Origin: a virus
Taxonomy: Duplodnaviria > Heunggongvirae > Uroviricota > Caudoviricetes
Reading direction: 5' to 3' (one strand)
Length of the DNA stretch: 64,000 nt
Virus record (IMG/VR): IMGVR_UViG_3300043172_001414
The notes beneath the pieces were generated by a model. It did no database searches, was not told where the DNA came from, and saw only the letters and a program-made list of their open reading frames with translations. Both the position numbers and the translations under genes were made by a program. Position 1 is the first letter of the stretch, and each line of letters begins with the position of its first letter. Positions 43,398-62,927 of this stretch are shown here, one piece after another.

Positions 43398-46300
43398 ATG
43401 AGCATAAAGGAATTATCAGAATTTACACGTATATCAAAGTATTCAAGATACTTACCAGAGAAACAGAGAAGGGAATCCTGGAAAGAACAGGTTGATCGAA
43501 TGATGGATATGCACAAGACGCATTTAGAGAGCTTGGAAGTTTTCGAAAATGTTAAAGATGAGTGGGCATTTGCTAAAGATATGCTTATGAAAAAACGAGT
43601 ACTTGGCTCGCAACGAGCACTTCAGTTTGGTGGTGATGCGACACTGAAACACAATGCACGTATATACAACTGCTTCAGGATCGATACTGAATTCATAACA
43701 ATAAATGGTGTAAAATCATTTTATGATTTTAGTCATGGTGATAAAACAAAAGTATTAACACATACAGGTGAATGGAAAAATGCCATAGTTAAAAGCTACG
43801 GTAAACAAAACATAAATCAAATAACCTTAAAAAATGGAAGAGGTTCTAAACGAGTATACGCTACTGAAAATCATACATGGATACTAAATGATGGCAGTAG
43901 GACAGAAAATTTGAAAATAGAAGATAAGTTATATAAACGGCCAAATATTTTTAATGACTGGAATTATGACGATGCAACACCAGATGAGAGACTATATTGG
44001 TCATATGGCTTTATATACGGTGATGGTACAACACTAAAAAATAAAGATGGCAACCACACTTATTCAATGGTAAGACTATGTGCAGAAAAAATAAAATACA
44101 AATATCGGTTTGAAGAATTAAACTTTAAAACTAGCACTAGCAATAGCTTGAATGGTGACTATATGGCATACACAGGAACATACTTAAAAACACTGCCAGA
44201 TCCTAATATTGATGACATAAATATTTTAAGAGCGTTTGTTAGAGGGTTTTTAGATGCTGACGGTGAAAAGAATAGAAATTATTCTAAAGACGGCACTGGA
44301 TCTATATTCAAGACCATACAAAATTCCGATGATAAAGCTCAAGAATTTATTAGAAAAGTTTTCCCTGTTGTTGGCGTATATATAAACTCAGAATCTGACA
44401 TCATAAAAGACACTAATTACGGCAAATTATATGCTAAAAAATTCAGCATAAATACTGATATTAATAAATTTTCACCTTCATGGTCAGTGACAGATATTGA
44501 GGAAAATATTTGCTCTGAAACAGTATGGTGCCTGGAAGTCGATGATAATAAATCTTTTGTTATGCCAAACGGTATAGTCACTGGAAATTGTGCATTTCAT
44601 TATGCAGATAGAATAAGAACATTCCAAGAAACCATGTATATGGCTTTATGTGGTTGTGGTGTTGGTTATAGCGTACAGAAACATCACATTAAAAAATTAC
44701 CGAAGATTCAACATGAAAGAAAAGGCGAGAACATAACATATACCATTCCAGACTCTATCGAAGGGTGGGCAGATGCAATTGGTGTATTAGTAGAATCTTT
44801 CTTCGTGTGCAAATCAGAATGGTCAGGATACAATGTTTTATTTGATTACTCAGACATAAGACCTGCCGGAGCCATTATAAAATCAAGCGGATCAAAAGCA
44901 CCAGGCCCAGACGGTCTCAGACGAACTATAGACCATATTAAAAAGATATTTTATACAGCTCTTAATGATGGAAGTAAAAAACTATCAACGCTCCAAGTTC
45001 ATGATATTATTTGTCACATTGCAGACGCTGTAGTTTCAGGTGGAATTAGAAGAGCAGCACTTATCAGCTTATTCTCAAAAGATGACATGGAAATGAGAAA
45101 CTGTAAAACTGGCAAATGGTTTATCGAGAACCCACAAAGAGGTAGAGCCAACAACTCAGTCTTATTAATCAGAGATGAAACGACAGAAGAAGAATTTAGA
45201 GAAATAATTACTTCAGTTAAAGAATATGGTGAACCCGGATTTATATTCAGCGACTCTACTGAGATTGGGTACAATCCTTGCGCTGAAATTGGCTTATACC
45301 CTGTAGACGTTGAATCTGGTAAGTCAGGTGTTGAGTTTTGCAACCTATCTGAGATCAACGCAAAAAAATGTAAAACTCTTGAAGACTTCATGGATTCAGC
45401 TAAAGCAGCAGCCATATTAGGTACGTTCCAGGCATCTTACTCATCCTTCCCATACCTTGGCGAGATCACCGAAAAGATCGTTGCTAAGGAGGCTCTATTA
45501 GGTGTATCTATCACAGGCATGCAAGACAACCCTGATATTGTTTTAGACCCTACAAATCAGCGTCTCGCTGCTCAGGTAGTTAAGAATACTAATAAAGAGA
45601 TCGCAGCTAAGATCGGTATCAATCAAGCAGCAAGAACAACCACTGTTAAACCATCTGGCACATCTTCTATTATCCTATCTACTGGTGCATCTGGTATTCA
45701 CCCAAACCATGCCAAGAGATATATTAGAAGGGTTCAATGTAATAACCAGGAAGAGCCACTTCAGTTTTTCAAGAAGTATAACCCCAGGGCTATAGAAAAG
45801 TCTGTTTGGGATACTAACGGAGTAACCGATGTAATCTCATTCCTATGTGAAGTTCCATCTCAGGCAAGAACCAAGAACGATATTAACGCTCTTAGCCTAT
45901 TAGAAAATGTCAAATCAACTTGGGTTAACTGGGTAGATGAAGGGAAGAACCAAGAGCTATGTGCTCATCCGTCTCTTTCTCACAATGTATCTAATACAAT
46001 CAATATTCTCGAAGGTGAATGGGAAACGGTAGCTGAATACATCTACTACAACCGTAAGTTTTTTGCAGGTATTTCTCTTCTTCCTCAGGAAGGGGATAAG
46101 ATTTATCCTCAAGCTCCTTTCCAAACCGTATACACTCCTAAAGAACTCGTAGACATGTACGGTGATGCTTCGGTATTTGCATCAGGATTAATTATCCATG
46201 CACAGAACGCATTTGATAAAAACTTATATGCAGCCTGTGACTCGTATCTCGGTATCGGTGAGAAACTAGAAATCCCCGACATTCAAAACAGTGAGATTCC

Positions 46301-46565
46301 TGATTCTATCGATAAACTAACCAAGATACTTGAAAAACAAATGTGGGTTAAGAGAGCCGACAAGTTTGCTAACAACTATTTCAATGGTGACAAAAGACAA
46401 ATGACATTTTGCTTAAAAGATGTAGATGCCTGGAAAACCTGGTGTGACGTTGGTAGAGAATATGTTGAAGTCCCATGGGATGAGTTCAATGAAGATAAAG
46501 ATAACACAAAAATTAGTGAAGATGTAGCTTGCTCCGGTGGATCATGTACATTGACACATATTTAA
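43398..46565 (+). CDS. Ribonucleotide reductase large chain containing an in-frame intein (extein about 749 aa; class not assignable by eye, possibly monomeric class II)
   Basis: Active-site motifs NPCAEIGL and CNLSEIN; a 306-aa insertion with intein and LAGLIDADG features. Confidence 0.8.
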   Translation: MSIKELSEFTRISKYSRYLPEKQRRESWKEQVDRMMDMHKTHLESLEVFENVKDEWAFAKDMLMKKRVLGSQRALQFGGDATLKHNARIYNCFRIDTEFITINGVKSFYDFSHGDKTKVLTHTGEWKNAIVKSYGKQNINQITLKNGRGSKRVYATENHTWILNDGSRTENLKIEDKLYKRPNIFNDWNYDDATPDERLYWSYGFIYGDGTTLKNKDGNHTYSMVRLCAEKIKYKYRFEELNFKTSTSNSLNGDYMAYTGTYLKTLPDPNIDDINILRAFVRGFLDADGEKNRNYSKDGTGSIFKTIQNSDDKAQEFIRKVFPVVGVYINSESDIIKDTNYGKLYAKKFSINTDINKFSPSWSVTDIEENICSETVWCLEVDDNKSFVMPNGIVTGNCAFHYADRIRTFQETMYMALCGCGVGYSVQKHHIKKLPKIQHERKGENITYTIPDSIEGWADAIGVLVESFFVCKSEWSGYNVLFDYSDIRPAGAIIKSSGSKAPGPDGLRRTIDHIKKIFYTALNDGSKKLSTLQVHDIICHIADAVVSGGIRRAALISLFSKDDMEMRNCKTGKWFIENPQRGRANNSVLLIRDETTEEEFREIITSVKEYGEPGFIFSDSTEIGYNPCAEIGLYPVDVESGKSGVEFCNLSEINAKKCKTLEDFMDSAKAAAILGTFQASYSSFPYLGEITEKIVAKEALLGVSITGMQDNPDIVLDPTNQRLAAQVVKNTNKEIAAKIGINQAARTTTVKPSGTSSIILSTGASGIHPNHAKRYIRRVQCNNQEEPLQFFKKYNPRAIEKSVWDTNGVTDVISFLCEVPSQARTKNDINALSLLENVKSTWVNWVDEGKNQELCAHPSLSHNVSNTINILEGEWETVAEYIYYNRKFFAGISLLPQEGDKIYPQAPFQTVYTPKELVDMYGDASVFASGLIIHAQNAFDKNLYAACDSYLGIGEKLEIPDIQNSEIPDSIDKLTKILEKQMWVKRADKFANNYFNGDKRQMTFCLKDVDAWKTWCDVGREYVEVPWDEFNEDKDNTKISEDVACSGGSCTLTHI
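43671..44588 (+). mobile_element. Intein with a LAGLIDADG homing endonuclease domain inside the RNR gene
   Basis: Begins with Cys (N|CFRIDTEF); two LAGLIDADG motifs (LYWSYGFIYGDGT, LRAFVRGFLDADGE); C-terminal block FVMPNGIVTGN followed by +1 Cys (CAFHY); 918 nt, in frame. Confidence 0.75.
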
Positions 46566-53775: not shown

Positions 53776-53805
53776 AAAAAGGGAGCAGTAACTCCCTTTT
53801 TTTTT
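53776..53805. terminator. Bidirectional terminator after the Hsp20 gene
   Basis: A-tract, then stem GGGAG/CTCCC, then a T9 run. Confidence 0.7.
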
Positions 53806-53884: not shown

Positions 53885-53919
53885 TTGACATCAGTACATA
53901 TTTATTGTATACTTTAGTT
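53885..53919 (+). promoter_or_regulatory. Sigma70-type promoter TTGACA-17-TATACT followed by TTAGTT, at the head of the tRNA island
   Basis: The spacer contains CAGTACATA; candidate tRNA-cluster promoter. Confidence 0.55.
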
Positions 53920-54318: not shown

Positions 54319-54960
54319 ATGAAAACAGATTGCACTAAAACTGATGGGTGGAAAGCCGCTCAAATAAAAACTAAAGTAACTTGCAAAGAAAAAACAAGAT
54401 TATTTAAATTAAATTATTTGGAGACTCCCAATTTATGTAAACAGTGTAGTTGTAAACTACCATTCGAAAAGAGATCCAATAAATTTTGCTCTCATAGTTG
54501 TTCAGCGTCATTTAATAATAAGGGCGTTAGAAGGCATGGGTATGAAAATATATTGGAATTCTGTCTACACTGCAATACAAAATTGACAACCCAAAAAAAG
54601 TTTTGTGATATTGATTGTAAAAATGATTATTATCACCAACAGTTTTTATTACAATGGAAATGTGGAAATCATAACGGGCTTAGAGGTGAATATAATCTAT
54701 CTGCCCATATAAGAAGATACATATTTGAAAAATATGATAGTAAATGCTGTCAATGTGGATGGGATGAAAAACACCCTTCTGATGGAAAAATACCATTAGA
54801 TATAGATCATATTGACGGTGATTATAATAATAATAATGAAGATAATTTAAGATTATTATGCCCTAATTGTCATTCATTAACACTAACATATAAATCCAGA
54901 AATAAAAACGGTAGAAAACAAAGAAAAAAATATTATAAAAAATGTGCGTTGCAATTGTGA
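54319..54960 (+). CDS. HNH homing endonuclease
   Basis: CQCGW…DIDHIDGDYNNNNEDNLRLLCPNCH. Confidence 0.75.
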   Translation: MKTDCTKTDGWKAAQIKTKVTCKEKTRLFKLNYLETPNLCKQCSCKLPFEKRSNKFCSHSCSASFNNKGVRRHGYENILEFCLHCNTKLTTQKKFCDIDCKNDYYHQQFLLQWKCGNHNGLRGEYNLSAHIRRYIFEKYDSKCCQCGWDEKHPSDGKIPLDIDHIDGDYNNNNEDNLRLLCPNCHSLTLTYKSRNKNGRKQRKKYYKKCALQL

Positions 54961-55260
54961 CTTACTTCGTTTTTCATTAACATGAAAGAAATCAAGGTTC
55001 AATTCCTTGTTTCCCCACCTGGTAGATTCTGTCTATCCGGTGGGGAAATAGCCCAATTGGTAGAGGCAATTCAAATTCAGTTATGATGATTTTTACCATA
55101 TTTTTTATTTTAAACATTTTTAAAAATGTGTGTTGCAAATTTGACTTACTTCGGATAAAAAAAACAATTCTAATGTTAATATCTTGGTTCAAATCCAGGA
55201 ACCGCCACTAAGTGGATAATGTCTATTTGGTGGCGGTTTAAAATAAATCAGTCATGTTAC
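54937..55260 (+). repeat. Tandem duplicated about 100-nt module: 33-nt direct repeat, T-arm-like hairpin and a 9-10 bp stem-loop (possible small stable RNAs)
   Basis: Direct repeat aaaaatgtgYgttgcaaWttgtgacttacttcg at about 54937 and 55122. Hairpins at about 55010-55048 and 55200-55238, each preceded by GGTTCAA(T/A)TCC, with loops sharing TGTCTAT. Confidence 0.5.
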
Positions 55261-55283
55261 CCTTTACCACATTTTTAATTATT

Positions 55284-55355
55284 GGTCGTATCGTCCAGTG
55301 GTTAGGACAGCAGCTTTTCAAGCTGAAAACCGGAGTTCAATTCTCCGTACGACTA
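55284..55355 (+). tRNA. tRNA-Glu (anticodon TTC)
   Basis: Acceptor GGTCGTA/TACGACT, D-stem GTCC/GGAC, anticodon loop TTTTCAA, T-arm CGGAGTTCAATTCTCCG. Confidence 0.7.
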
Positions 55356-55358
55356 TTA

Positions 55359-55431
55359 TGCGAGGAAGAGCAGTCCGGTCGCTTGCTGGCCTCATAAGCC
55401 AGAGTCCGTAGGTTCAAATCCTACCCTCCGC
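55359..55431 (+). tRNA. tRNA with CAT anticodon (Met or Ile2), imperfect acceptor and D stems
   Basis: Anticodon arm CTGGC-CTCATAA-GCCAG and T-arm GTAGGTTCAAATCCTAC; two A-C mismatches in the acceptor stem. Confidence 0.5.
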
Positions 55432-55450
55432 TATTATATTAATAAAACTT

Positions 55451-56896: not shown

Positions 56897-57508
56897 ATGA
56901 GTAAAATTAACAAAGAATTAAGCATAGCAGATAGACAAGCCTTAGGTGCTAGATGCACAAAGGAACATATTATAAATGCTTTCGGAAATTGTTGCACTGT
57001 ATGTGGATATAATAAAAGTCCTGCGGTTTTAGCGTTTCACCATATCAATCCTGGTGAAAAAGAAACCTCATTTGCATCAAAATTAATGACAAAAAAAATA
57101 TGGCCTCGCCTGGTTAAAGAATTAAGAAAATGTATTTTAGTTTGTCATAACTGCCACGCTGAGATACATCAAGGGATAACTAAAGTACCAAGGAACGCTA
57201 TCCAGTTTGATGAACTATATTCTTTGTATTGGGTTGAAGATAAACATTCCGATAAATGCGTTTGTGGAAATAAAAAAGAAATATGGAAACAAACATGTTC
57301 TGAAAAATGTACTAGAGTTATTAGAGGCATAAAAATATCGCACAGCAAAACTAATTTAAAATGGAAAGACATTGATTTGATTAATGAACTAAAAACTCAA
57401 ACCATATCTGAGTTATCCCGTTCACTGGGCTGTGGATGGGATACAGTAAAAAGAAATTATGACAAACAAAAAGAGGTTTGCAATGTCAATGAAGTTAGAC
57501 ACATTTAG
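56897..57508 (+). CDS. HNH homing endonuclease
   Basis: CTVCGY…AFHHINP…LVCHNCH. Confidence 0.75.
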   Translation: MSKINKELSIADRQALGARCTKEHIINAFGNCCTVCGYNKSPAVLAFHHINPGEKETSFASKLMTKKIWPRLVKELRKCILVCHNCHAEIHQGITKVPRNAIQFDELYSLYWVEDKHSDKCVCGNKKEIWKQTCSEKCTRVIRGIKISHSKTNLKWKDIDLINELKTQTISELSRSLGCGWDTVKRNYDKQKEVCNVNEVRHI

Positions 57509-59201: not shown

Positions 59202-59879
59202 ATGACAAGACCAAATTTTACCGAAATAATAGCAATCATTGATAGATCAGGATCTATGCAGTCGCTAACACCAGAAACTATTTCTGGATACAACTCATTT
59301 CTTAAAGAACAAAAAGAAATCGAAGATGAAACAAATATATCCTTAGTTCTATTTAACCATACTCATGAATACATTTATGATAATGTACCAATTAAGAAAG
59401 TTAAAAAACTAAAGAAACAAATCTATATGGCTCATGGTATGACAGCTATGAACGATGCCATTGGTACTGCAATCACAACAGCTGGTGCTCGTCTAGCAAA
59501 GATGGAAGAACATGAAAGACCAAGCAAGGTAATAGTTCTCATCATCACTGACGGTCAAGAAAACAGCTCAAGAGAATACAGAACATCTCAAATCAAAGAG
59601 ATGATTGATAAGCAACAAAATACTTACTCGTGGGAATTCATATTCCTTGGAGCTAATATAGATGTGGATCAATATGCTGCAGACTATGGTTTCAAAGCAG
59701 GTAAATTTGCCATGTACGATCAATCAAGCAAAGGCACTACCGCAGTATTTGATTCTATGTCAACCGCTGTAACCAATGAAAGAGGCTTTAGTATTGATGA
59801 CTCTGGTGAACGGACAAGATCTGCAGGAACTGTAAATTATAGCATGGACACCATATACACAAAATCGATGAATAAATAA
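59202..59879 (+). CDS. von Willebrand factor type A (vWA) domain protein
   Basis: MIDAS motif (IIDRSGSM), TDGQEN; 225 aa. Confidence 0.65.
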   Translation: MTRPNFTEIIAIIDRSGSMQSLTPETISGYNSFLKEQKEIEDETNISLVLFNHTHEYIYDNVPIKKVKKLKKQIYMAHGMTAMNDAIGTAITTAGARLAKMEEHERPSKVIVLIITDGQENSSREYRTSQIKEMIDKQQNTYSWEFIFLGANIDVDQYAADYGFKAGKFAMYDQSSKGTTAVFDSMSTAVTNERGFSIDDSGERTRSAGTVNYSMDTIYTKSMNK

Positions 59880-61177: not shown

Positions 61178-61310
61178 GCTATATTGGTCTGAAGCAGGAT
61201 GGAGGATACAGAAATGTATCGGTTACTCTGGGGACGGAGTTTCATGCTTTCGGCAAGACATATCTTCGGTAATACAAGGTAGGACATGGGTTCGACTCCC
61301 ATATATAGCT
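61178..61310 (+). ncRNA. 133-nt tRNA-like RNA: perfect 7-bp acceptor pairing plus canonical T-arm, but about 60 extra internal nucleotides
   Basis: 5' GCTATAT pairs with 3' ATATAGC; T-arm ATGGGTTCGACTCCCAT; internal GATAC/GTATC hairpin; no canonical cloverleaf fits. Confidence 0.4.
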
Positions 61311-61314
61311 TAAC

Positions 61315-61388
61315 GGGTTTCTAGCTCAATTGGTTAGAGCAGCAGTCTCATAATCTGCAGGTACTGGGTTCGATCCCCAGGAAGCCCA
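61315..61388 (+). tRNA. tRNA with CAT anticodon (fourth copy; Met or Ile2)
   Basis: Acceptor GGGTTTC/GAAGCCC, D-arm GCTC-AATTGGTTA-GAGC, anticodon loop CTCATAA, T-arm CTGGGTTCGATCCCCAG. Confidence 0.7.
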
Positions 61389-62150: not shown

Positions 62151-62927
62151 ATGAAATTACAATTTTTAGGTTCTGGAAACGCTTTCACATTACTAAACTA
62201 TCAGTCTGCAGCAATGTTAACTCATAATGATAAGAACTTTCTTATTGATTGTGGTAGTGATACACGATTCAGCGCTGATAAGTGTGGCTTTACATTCTCT
62301 GATATTGATGCGGTTTATGTATCTCACCTTCACGGTGATCATATAGGTGGACTTGAATGGTTAGGATTTACTACCTATTTCACACCAAATGTTGATAGAC
62401 CAAAACTCTTTATTGAGAAGGCATTAATATCAGACTTGTGGTTATCTCTTAAAGGTGGAATGGAAAGCCTACAAGGTAAGATAGCTACACTTGATACATA
62501 CTTTGAAGTTATGCCCATCGAAGTCAACCATCCATTTAATTGGAATGGTATCAGCTTTGATGCAGTACAAACACTGCACATAACAAACAAGTATAAGCAT
62601 GTACCAAGCTATGGTTTAATGTGGTCAACCGAAGAAGACAAACGAGCTTACTTTACAACTGATTGTCAGTACGCTCCCGAATCTTCAATGATGGCATTCT
62701 ACAAAGAAGCTGATTATATCTTCCATGACTGTGAAACTGCACCATATGAATCTGGTGTTCACGCTCATTATAATCAGCTAAAGCAATTACCGGAAGAAGT
62801 TAAAAATAAAATGCACTTGTATCATTATCAAGATAATATTATCGAAGATTTTGAGAACAAAAGCAAAGAAGCAAATTGTGATGGCTTCATGGGATTTGTC
62901 CGCAAGGGAGCTATCATAACATTATAA
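62151..62927 (+). CDS. Metallo-beta-lactamase-fold hydrolase (RNase Z/ElaC-like or cyclic-nucleotide-hydrolase-like)
   Basis: HxHxDH motif (VSHLHGDHIGG) and downstream His/Asp ligands; 258 aa; embedded in the tRNA island. Confidence 0.7.
   Translation: MKLQFLGSGNAFTLLNYQSAAMLTHNDKNFLIDCGSDTRFSADKCGFTFSDIDAVYVSHLHGDHIGGLEWLGFTTYFTPNVDRPKLFIEKALISDLWLSLKGGMESLQGKIATLDTYFEVMPIEVNHPFNWNGISFDAVQTLHITNKYKHVPSYGLMWSTEEDKRAYFTTDCQYAPESSMMAFYKEADYIFHDCETAPYESGVHAHYNQLKQLPEEVKNKMHLYHYQDNIIEDFENKSKEANCDGFMGFVRKGAIITL

Follow-up and report, generated by a model that had tools for sequence, protein, structure and literature searches.

Probable tandem YrlA-class Y RNA genes among the tRNA genes of a distant T4-like phage

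The locus and its two modules

The stretch of viral DNA analysed here, 64,000 nucleotides (nt) of the record IMGVR_UViG_3300043172_001414 (hereafter the window), carries on its + strand a cluster of transfer RNA (tRNA) genes, 18 of which are called by ARAGORN between 54187 and 63158. The cluster holds two modules of ~165-175 nt, M1 at 54935-55108 and M2 at 55120-55278, flanked by an open reading frame (ORF) for an HNH-like protein on the 5' side and by a tRNA-Glu gene that begins at 55283, directly 3' of M2. Common to both modules are a 5' box, a T-arm and an acceptor-like stem with its closing loop; a D-arm is present in M1 only. We consider it very likely that M1 and M2 are tandem genes for Y RNAs of the YrlA class, carried among its tRNA genes by a distant T4-like phage. 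As such, the pair is a previously unannotated member of an RNA class that is already known.

The 32-nt box, AAAAATGTG[C/T]GTTGCAA[T/A]T[G/T]TGACTTACTTCG, lies at 54938-54969 and again at 55122-55153. An earlier note on this DNA, made from the letters alone, had reported a repeat at a spacing of about 185 nt, and the repeat is real: the two copies stand 184 nt apart, differ by 3 substitutions and have no counterpart in 100 dinucleotide shuffles (0 matches). The repetition reaches 42 nt at 86% identity (direct-repeat family D12), and the homology of M1 and M2 goes beyond the box to the full length of the modules, with 77% column identity. The same note had taken the repeated sequence to come from the HNH gene, which is not so; the 5' stalk of M1 merely overlaps the end of the ORF by 26 nt.

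The hairpins that had been named are all present in the sequence. The T-arms read CAAGG-TTCAATT-CCTTG at 54993-55009 (M1) and CTTGG-TTCAAAT-CCAGG at 55183-55199 (M2); in each, 5 bp of stem close a loop of UUCAAUU (M1) or UUCAAAU (M2), and a G53-C61 equivalent is present. They are followed by a perfect 10-bp stem in M1 (TTTCCCCACC/GGTGGGGAAA, 19-nt loop, 55010-55048) and a perfect 9-bp stem in M2 (AACCGCCAC/GTGGCGGTT, 21-nt loop, 55200-55238), whose loops have TGTCTAT in common, and in M1 by the D-arm-like segment TAGCCCAATTGGTAGAGGC at 55049-55067.

Both modules are predicted to adopt closed multi-helix folds (z = -5.3 for M1 and -5.8 for M2; 0/200 shuffles were as stable). Each fold joins the 5' box to a tail at the 3' end, pairing AAAAAUGUG with CAYAUUUUU (helix P1) and UGACU with AGUYA (helix P2). 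This tail had gone unnoticed, and because the box pairs with it the unit exceeds the interval given in the earlier note and extends from 54935 to 55278; the closing stalk and the link to Ro60 were both missing there. The stalk of each RNA consists of P1, a conserved internal loop (5' GUUGCA, 3' GAUUUUUAC) and P2, and encloses a head with its elements in permuted order: UUAC, V region, T-arm, acceptor-like stem-loop (AS) and, in M1, the D-arm. A descriptor scan of the window for further stalk units returned none besides M1 and M2. The elements are as follows, with alignments referring to the covariance model R1 described below.

54319..54960, + strand: HNH-like ORF, 213 amino acids (ORF list; context, outside the RNA), its 3' end overlapping the M1 stalk
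54935..54946, + strand: M1 helix P1, 5' strand AUAAAAAAUGUG, inside the final codons of the HNH-like ORF; its partner in the minimum-free-energy (MFE) fold is 55097-55108
54947..54953, + strand: M1 5' junction motif CGUUGCA; aligns to GUGCA of R1
54954..54962, + strand: M1 helix P2, 5' strand AUUGUGACU; pairs with 55079-55087 (MFE fold, R1 alignment)
54962..54969, + strand: M1 UUACUUCG, an exact match in both modules
54970..54992, + strand: M1 V region, hairpin UUUUUCAU/AUGAAAGA (MFE fold, sequence inspection)
54993..55009, + strand: M1 T-arm CAAGG UUCAAUU CCUUG (sequence, fold, R1 alignment)
55010..55048, + strand: M1 AS, 7 bp UUUCCCC/GGGGAAA (sequence, fold, R1 alignment)
55049..55067, + strand: M1 U8-A9 equivalent and D-arm, aligned to the R1 D-arm
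55079..55087, + strand: M1 helix P2, 3' strand AGUUAUGAU (fold, descriptor scan, R1 alignment, covariation)
55088..55096, + strand: M1 3' junction motif GAUUUUUAC; GAYUUUUAC in the related loci L001 and L003, CGAyUUnUUCC in the wider family
55097..55108, + strand: M1 helix P1, 3' strand CAUAUUUUUUAU (MFE fold, covariation)
55120..55153, + strand: M2 5' stalk, with P1 5' strand 55120-55130, UGUUGCA 55131-55137, P2 5' strand 55138-55146 and UUACUUCG 55146-55153
55183..55199, + strand: M2 T-arm CUUGG UUCAAAU CCAGG (sequence, fold, R1 alignment)
55200..55238, + strand: M2 AS, 7 bp AACCGCC/GGCGGUU, then A-C; continues as a 17-bp hairpin
55250..55278, + strand: M2 3' stalk, with P2 3' strand 55250-55258, junction ACCCUUUAC 55259-55267 and P1 3' strand 55268-55278

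Beyond its 7 bp, the AS of M1 continues with A-C-C (55017-55019) paired to GGU and with a 19-nt loop that has internal pairing. The D-arm at 55051-55067 is a 4-bp stem, GCCC/G(A)GGC, with one bulged A and the loop AAUUGGUA, which contains G18-G19; direct-repeat family D17 places it together with true tRNA D-arms. The last base of the M1 V region is a U that could form an A15:U48 Levitt-type pair. Elbow and core nucleotides of tRNA are represented in M1 by U8/A14, A15/U48, G18-G19 and the T-loop UUCAAUU.

A perfect 14-nt palindrome, CATTTTTAAAAATG, sits at the M1/M2 junction (55115-55128) and overlaps the start of M2 P1.

Relatives and membership in the YrlA family

Y RNAs have a middle that mimics a tRNA and ends that pair with each other, and they normally dock the Ro60 protein. 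The YrlA type (Rfam RF02553) has been described from Salmonella Typhimurium, Mycobacterium smegmatis and more than 250 bacteria and phages (Chen et al. 2014, PMC4201824). Its architecture runs from the stalk through YUAY, V region, T-arm, acceptor-like stem-loop and D-arm back to the stalk, and its conserved features are the motif GNCGAAN0-1G, a putative Ro60 contact, and the YUAY at the start of the V region (PMC4201824). The earlier note was right to read the modules as a circularly permuted tRNA, and the order T-arm, 3' acceptor strand, loop, 5' acceptor strand, D-arm is that of YrlA (PMC4201824). Like YrlA, M1 and M2 possess a 5'/3' stalk with a conserved motif in its 5' strand, YUAY, the succession V region, T-arm, AS and (in M1) D-arm, and the nucleotides of tRNA tertiary pairs. 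UUAC at 54962-54965 (M1) and 55146-55149 (M2) corresponds to the YUAY that opens the V region, and CGUUGCA of M1 occupies the position of GNCGAAN0-1G. By its predicted structure M1 is a complete YrlA-type RNA. What had looked like a puzzling permuted tRNA is now an annotated gene pair.

Do such modules occur elsewhere, and is their pairing maintained? The 14-base box pattern by itself returned ~120 stretches among viral contigs, almost all of them chance matches; only L001 to L003 were real. An exact-pattern scan recovered a 6-kb contig identical to the window and a 104-kb T4-like contig, IMGVR_UViG_3300043172_001415, with at least eight modules that share the stalk, one at L001 and seven at L003. 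A pattern combining the box with the TTTTTACC tail found L003 and three chance matches only. L001 carries an orthologue of M2 in which the AS, T and P2 helices are kept, followed by tRNA-Glu, tRNA-Met and tRNA-Gln in synteny with the window.

At L003 (173-1321), seven tandem units with very different heads stand on a common stalk. Unit a (173-270) is almost headless. Unit b (275-421) surrounds an entire cloverleaf in unpermuted order, which ARAGORN names tRNA-Ser(GCU) and to which the Rfam tRNA model gives 45 bits; it has A33 and a G1-A72 mismatch. Units c-f are of the permuted YrlA type. In unit g (1171-1321) the order is that of a normal tRNA, from D-arm through CAU anticodon arm and long variable arm to T-arm, the stalk replacing the acceptor stem. 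The permuted heads of c-f together with the unpermuted heads of b and g mean that both tRNA topologies are borne by one scaffold. Four units of L003 are matched by the Rfam YrlA model, with scores of 25-38 bits and E-values from 1.8e-6 to 0.01; their elements come in the order T-AS-D.

All units of the T4-like group are laid out in the same manner: P1 5' strand, UGUUGCA, a variable 8-mer (P2 5' strand), UUACUUCG, head, the complement of the 8-mer (P2 3' strand), GAYUUUUAC and P1 3' strand. The sequences of P1 and P2 vary from unit to unit and their complementarity is kept. Cognate duplexes are more stable than non-cognate ones, with energies of -8.3 vs -1.7 kcal/mol for P1 and -4.1 vs -0.4 kcal/mol for P2 in the T4-like group, and of -9.9 vs -3.7 kcal/mol for P1 in the wide family (p = 2e-35). 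Between M2 and L001, the acceptor-like hairpin has undergone four compensatory changes (A-U>C-G, C-G>U-A, G-C>C-G, U-A>C-G), and P2 and the T stem show one further double change each. Since pairing is kept through covariation, the module structures are RNAs under selection, neither DNA signals nor decaying tRNA fragments.

Family membership was examined with the pattern TGCA-N8-TTACTTCG-N10-40-GGTTCNANNCC, run on public collections. It matched 32 viral and at least 120 metagenomic stretches, far above chance, nearly all of them with the full architecture. A gene with TROVE and vWA_Ro60 domains is present at 94 of 149 pattern-matched loci, always on the same strand (94/94), in 91 cases downstream, at a median gap of ~280 nt. 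That a Ro60 orthologue neighbours so many of these loci marks the box as a signature of Ro60-linked Y RNAs. An alignment (A2) of 80 non-redundant pattern-matched RNAs, none from the window or its relative and with columns 27-34 fixed by the search pattern, yields consensus helices of 8 bp (P2), 5 bp (T), 7 bp (AS) and 4 bp (D). Compensatory changes are found in 21 of the 24 pairs, including 8/8 pairs of P2 and 7/7 pairs of AS. The helices are paired in 95.9% of A2 cells, compared with 67.4% after shuffling, and the covariation score is 0.77, compared with 0.22 after shuffling and at most 0.19 when partners are slid by 1-3 columns.

The covariance model R1, built from A2, recognises M1 over its full length (54936-55111, 70.1 bits, E 1.5e-17) and M2 with its D-arm deleted (55120-55282, 30.5 bits, E 1e-6). 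Scores for the relative and for a control were as follows.

L003 units c-f: 93-115 bits
L003 units a and b: 35 bits
L003 unit g: 23.7 bits
L001: 23.3 bits
Chance pattern match in coding DNA (L134), control: 19.3 bits

R1 also detects RNAs in reference phages. Caulobacter phage CcrColossus yields seven hits at E<=0.1, of which five exceed 50 bits (R1 range 51-91 bits, maximum 90.9), and the T4-like Rhizobium phage RHph_TM30 (Kleczkowskaviridae) yields scores of 27-83 bits; in both, the array lies directly upstream of a TROVE gene. A phage Ro60-Yrl-PNPase complex has been described in phiLo, and CcrColossus has been named as a carrier of Y RNA-like RNAs (PMC12135203). The window pair resembles the arrays of CcrColossus and RHph_TM30 and the Yrl1/Yrl2 array of phiLo in consisting of tandem units, full and reduced, often within tRNA clusters. 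The arrays of those phages end directly at a TROVE gene, whereas the window pair ends at tRNA-Glu. R1 gave no hit on phiLo or on Vibrio phage phiTY18. In crAss001, too, the Ro60 gene neighbours an HNH gene and tRNAs, as the window modules do. Box-plus-T-loop signature and R1 together recovered more than 150 loci, about two thirds of them with a neighbouring Ro60 gene. YrlA-type Y RNAs are common in phage tRNA clusters, yet they fall under the Rfam threshold and can be mis-called as tRNAs.

The tRNA-Gln annotated in CcrColossus (JX100810.1, record positions 109217-109284; L279 2047-2114) lies inside the 90.9-bit Y RNA match (2038-2216), which is one of the seven R1 hits arrayed just 5' of the TROVE gene gp139. 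This tRNA-Gln is probably the mis-annotated tRNA-like head of a Y RNA. At another locus (L244), a type III hammerhead ribozyme at 1625-1681 (53.9 bits, above gathering) is situated ~30 nt upstream of tandem Y RNA units (~1710 and ~1915).

The long acceptor-like hairpin loops GUAGAUUCUGUCUAUCCGGUGG (55020-55041) and GUGGAUAAUGUCUAUUUGGUGG (55209-55231) resemble a degenerate 5' acceptor strand plus D-arm, and MAFFT places the M2 loop opposite the D-arm of the other units; these resemblances may be the trace of an internal duplication that gave rise to the extended hairpin. An alternative fold of M2, a 4-bp AS with a G-U-rich D-arm suggested by the MAFFT alignment of M2/L001 with L003 c-f, finds no support in the substitutions between M2 and L001, which favour the long hairpin.

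Evidence against the assignment, rival readings and possible mechanism

Several findings weigh against the assignment to YrlA. The Rfam YrlA model gives no match to M1 or M2 on 54850-55300 even at E<=10. The published motif GNCGAAN0-1G is literally absent, M1 having CGUUGCAA and M2 UGUUGCAA. M2 lacks a D-arm after its AS, where 16 R1 model positions are deleted, and much of its 30.5 bits comes from positions fixed by a search pattern that was itself derived from M2. No Ro60 gene was recovered either: a Ro60 hidden Markov model (HMM) run on the six-frame translation of the 64-kb window found none at E<=10, with 91 hits in the positive control, and the precomputed Pfam hits to called genes in the 6.5 kb past its 3' end and the 10 kb past its 5' end (L276, L284) include no TROVE domain. 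The usual place of Ro60, right after the RNAs, is taken in the window by tRNA-Glu. Finally, the expression, processing and protein binding of M1 and M2 are predictions from sequence.

The failure of the Rfam model is not disqualifying, given that the RNAs of CcrColossus and RHph_TM30 reach only 30-42 bits, themselves far from the gathering score of 69 bits. With 0/20 loci (18 pattern-matched loci plus L001 and L003) matching at gathering, the RF02553 threshold under-calls this branch, and the Ro60-linked branch is effectively unannotated by Rfam 15. At the position of the published motif, the 149 pattern-matched loci have NNUGCA(G/A/U) and the accepted CcrColossus RNAs GGCGUAG; variants beside Ro60 genes include AGUGCAG, GGUGCAG, AUUGCAG, AUUGCAA and AGUGCAA, and GUUGCAA is one substitution away from the last two. 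As far as sequence can tell, the GUUGCAA of M1 and M2 is within the variation seen beside Ro60 genes. M2, for want of a D-arm, is filed as a reduced, YrlB-like paralogue. Other pattern-matched loci, too, have arrays with units that lack a D-arm (L219 3872-3999 is one), as do Ro60-linked arrays, and such reduced units recall the YrlB partners described in bacteria (PMC4201824).

The differences from known YrlA RNAs are the motif (C/U)GUUGCAA, the extension of the acceptor-like hairpin to 17-19 bp, the missing D-arm of M2, the silence of the Rfam model and the lack of Ro60 within 4 kb, or anywhere in the ~80 kb covered. Within ~4 kb of M1/M2, no Ro60 gene was found on the same strand. This distance was a search criterion of the 2014 survey (PMC4201824) and is not a property of the Y RNA itself. 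The seven-module array of the relative is likewise followed by TerD-like genes, not by Ro60, and a query of viral contigs with the RHph_TM30 Ro60 protein confirmed no locus as a relative. Some ten real family loci have at least 2 kb of downstream sequence and no Ro60, several of them rich in tRNAs; one (L128) combines 31 tRNAs with an 88-bit RNA. Uncoupled loci therefore form a minority that recurs, and the window is not the only case. M1 and M2 are unusual only in being local orphans and in the encoded ACC that goes with their 7-bp acceptor-like stem. A Ro60 protein may be supplied by the host or be encoded elsewhere in the incompletely sequenced phage genome.

Could the same RNAs act independently of Ro60, the stalk being a scaffold for processing or stability and the heads decoys or sponges for RNase P, CCA-adding or tRNA-modifying enzymes, or host defence nucleases that target tRNAs? 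We hold this to be possible but doubtful. It would account for the absence of Ro60 from the ~80 kb, for the TerD-like genes after the relative's array and for the ten or so family loci without Ro60, and it sits well with an acceptor end that is more tRNA-like than in typical members (7 bp plus ACC or AC) and with the very different heads carried by the L003 stalk. Against it, the T4-like clade conserves the 5' motif and both junction strands, and these do not leave the range of variants found beside Ro60 genes; this argues that a Ro60-type protein partner is still recognised; moreover, the phage genome is incomplete here and a host Ro60 is possible.

The remaining readings deny that the modules are Y RNAs at all. 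That they are relics of tRNA genes, either tandem tRNAs truncated by a homing endonuclease or the T-arm of one tRNA beside the D-arm of the next, is suggested by their place in a tRNA cluster beside an HNH-like ORF, and tandem tRNAs do give partial R1 matches over model positions 30-117 (for example window 61264-61350, 36.9 bits). M1 and M2, however, fit R1 from end to end with the stalk included, their acceptor strands are complementary to each other with pairing that runs on into ACC/GGU, and box and tail covary. The disruption of tRNA genes by homing that the earlier note had considered is contradicted by the relatives, in which stalk, T and acceptor-like helices keep pairing via compensatory changes, as the L001 orthologue does in AS, T and P2; we rate relics as quite improbable. 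A box acting as DNA signal, be it a phage promoter or a homing or recombination site, with the hairpins as terminators, could appeal to a weak sigma-70-like match in the M2 box (TTGACT-16-AACAAT, 9/12). Promoter-like sites in general occur at shuffle expectation (10 observed vs 9.9), no U-tract follows the acceptor-like hairpins, and the 8-mer of the box covaries with a segment ~100 nt downstream, as does the upstream flank with the 3' flank. Because the box covaries with distant sequence it belongs to a transcript, and a DNA signal is highly improbable.

Two further readings rest on the permuted order. In the red alga Cyanidioschyzon merolae, permuted tRNA genes have the 3' half before the 5' half and give rise, via a circular intermediate, to real tRNAs with anticodon arms. 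M1 and M2 share the order of 3' half, linker and 5' half with these genes; the stalk replaces the anticodon arm. Genes for a working, circularised tRNA are nevertheless barely credible here: there is no anticodon stem-loop, the ends form a P1-loop-P2 stalk of ~20 bp whose internal loop is conserved, the D-arm is missing from M2, homologues adjoin Ro60 genes, and neither ARAGORN nor Rfam calls a tRNA at M1 or M2 at threshold. A two-piece, circularly permuted transfer-messenger RNA (tmRNA) gene or gene pair would likewise place T-arm and 3' acceptor strand before the 5' acceptor strand with a loop between, with RNase P and 3' processing expected to yield two pieces, and the Rfam model tmRNA_permuted (RF04321) does give both modules a local match (17.7 and 16.2 bits, E 0.14 and 0.29) that spans T-arm to 5' acceptor strand, acceptor and loop included. 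These 16-18 bits are far below the gathering score of 47 and cover 60 of 213 model positions. ARAGORN, which is able to call permuted tmRNAs, reports none; the G3:U70 pair is replaced by G3-C70 in M1 and C3-G70 in M2; pseudoknots and a tag frame are lacking, and the ~45 nt after the acceptor strand of M2 leave no room for the latter. A tmRNA is extremely improbable. A tag reading after the M1 D-arm, GCA AUU CAA AUU CAG UUA UGA UGA, was dropped, as it has no equivalent in M2 and goes with neither G3:U70 nor an ARAGORN or Rfam tmRNA call.

The stable RNAs of T4, which the earlier note had offered as analogues, differ from M1 and M2. T4 rnaC and rnaD (species 1 and 2) are small RNAs without an assigned function at the end of a tRNA cluster, beside the homing endonuclease gene segB. 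rnaC has a T-arm, as M1 and M2 do, and in neither RNA are the stalk motif and the permuted order found. Applied with filters off to T4 70.7-71.4 kb, R1 matches only the T-arm of rnaC (12.2 bits), so that the likeness goes no further than a bare T-arm. The internal loop of the stalk (7 x 9 nt, GAUUUUUAC vs GUAUAUUAC) recalls loop B of a hairpin ribozyme; this is a coincidence, since no loop A or substrate motif exists and the Y RNA stalk explains the element.

How might YrlA-type RNAs at this locus work? A single transcript, started at a promoter-like site, would contain both modules together with the flanking tRNAs, and M1 and M2 would be cut out of this precursor.

53885..53913, + strand: promoter-like site TTGACA-17-TATACT, 11/12 consensus match, just 3' of a terminator-like hairpin at 53776-53801

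The stalk motif would then dock a Ro60 (Rsr) ring protein, either of host origin or from another part of the phage genome, and the tRNA-like head would recruit tRNA-handling enzymes or an effector such as PNPase. Machines made of Ro60, Y RNA and PNPase are known from Deinococcus and Salmonella (PMC4201824) and from Thermus phage phiLo (PMC12135203). In M. smegmatis, RNase P cleaves YrlA and CCA is added to it in vivo, for which its 7-bp stem has been given as the reason (PMC4201824); M1 and M2 share with that RNA an acceptor-like stem of 7 bp and a C encoded 3' of the discriminator base. The 7-bp stem followed by A-C(-C) makes it likely that they, too, are cut by RNase P and completed with CCA. 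Cuts would be expected at 55041/55042 (M1) and 55231/55232 (M2), and CCA completion would leave a two-piece RNA held together by its helices. The guess of the earlier note, that M1 and M2 may be stable small RNAs on which RNase P and the CCA-adding enzyme act, is in keeping with M. smegmatis YrlA.

A wider proposal would be that a T4-like lineage has uncoupled the Y RNA stalk from Ro60 and uses it as a modular scaffold for permuted, unpermuted and acceptor-less heads or for none, as in the seven-unit array of the relative. The RNAs would be made together with the phage tRNAs and would divert host enzymes directed at tRNAs, or anti-phage tRNA nucleases, as decoys; RNase P cleavage and the addition of CCA would turn M1 and M2 into tRNA mimics of two pieces. 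We think this rather unlikely. The window pair and the relative's array, in which the RNA is kept without a nearby Ro60 gene, offer a system in which to ask whether phage Y RNAs use the Ro60 and PNPase of the host or none.

The phage and its flanking genes

Pfam matches in the window to gp23, gp20 portal, a gp43-type polymerase, UvsX, UvsW, gp32, gp41, primase and ribonucleotide reductase identify the genome, by its gene content, as that of a distant T4-like phage. Its polymerase is ~31% identical to those of cultured relatives, and a megablast search of GenBank phages with the module region gave no match. The 10 kb beyond the 5' end contain T4 structural genes. A class II ribonucleotide reductase ORF of 1055 amino acids (43398-46565) includes a match to an intein splicing domain at residues 130-396, at 23.3 bits, under the Pfam cut-off.

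Rfam finds 16 tRNAs in the cluster, one of which is absent from the ARAGORN set; it lies at 55360-55432 (46 bits), between tRNA-Glu and tRNA-Met. The HNH-like ORF upstream of the modules matches Pfam HNH_3 with E = 2.5e-4 and 21.1 bits, under the 24.8-bit cut-off. A second cysteine-rich HNH-like ORF, of 203 amino acids and with no Pfam hit, is found directly 3' of tRNA-Asn at 56897-57508; as read from the sequence, the two ORFs suggest repeated insertion of homing endonucleases into the tRNA cluster.

A stand-alone vWA protein is encoded within the cluster at 59202-59879, with generic and TerF-like VWA matches. We considered whether it might be a remnant of Ro60 and ruled this out, the ORF having such matches and no match to the Ro60 HMM. 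In the relative, ORFs that look TerD-like lie 3' of the Y RNA array (L003 1447-3135; a reading of the translation, with no Pfam check). Together with the vWA gene of the window they may point to a Ter-type module linked to the Y RNA/tRNA region.

The cluster also contains, at 62151-62927, a gene for an Apyc1-like (anti-Pycsar) protein of the metallo-beta-lactamase fold. The 6.5 kb beyond the 3' end of the window encode Apyc1-like, NUDIX, NAMPT and dUTPase proteins, and the NUDIX and NAMPT/NAPRTase genes that follow the Apyc1-like gene there (L276 4986-7334) form an NAD-salvage or counter-defence block.

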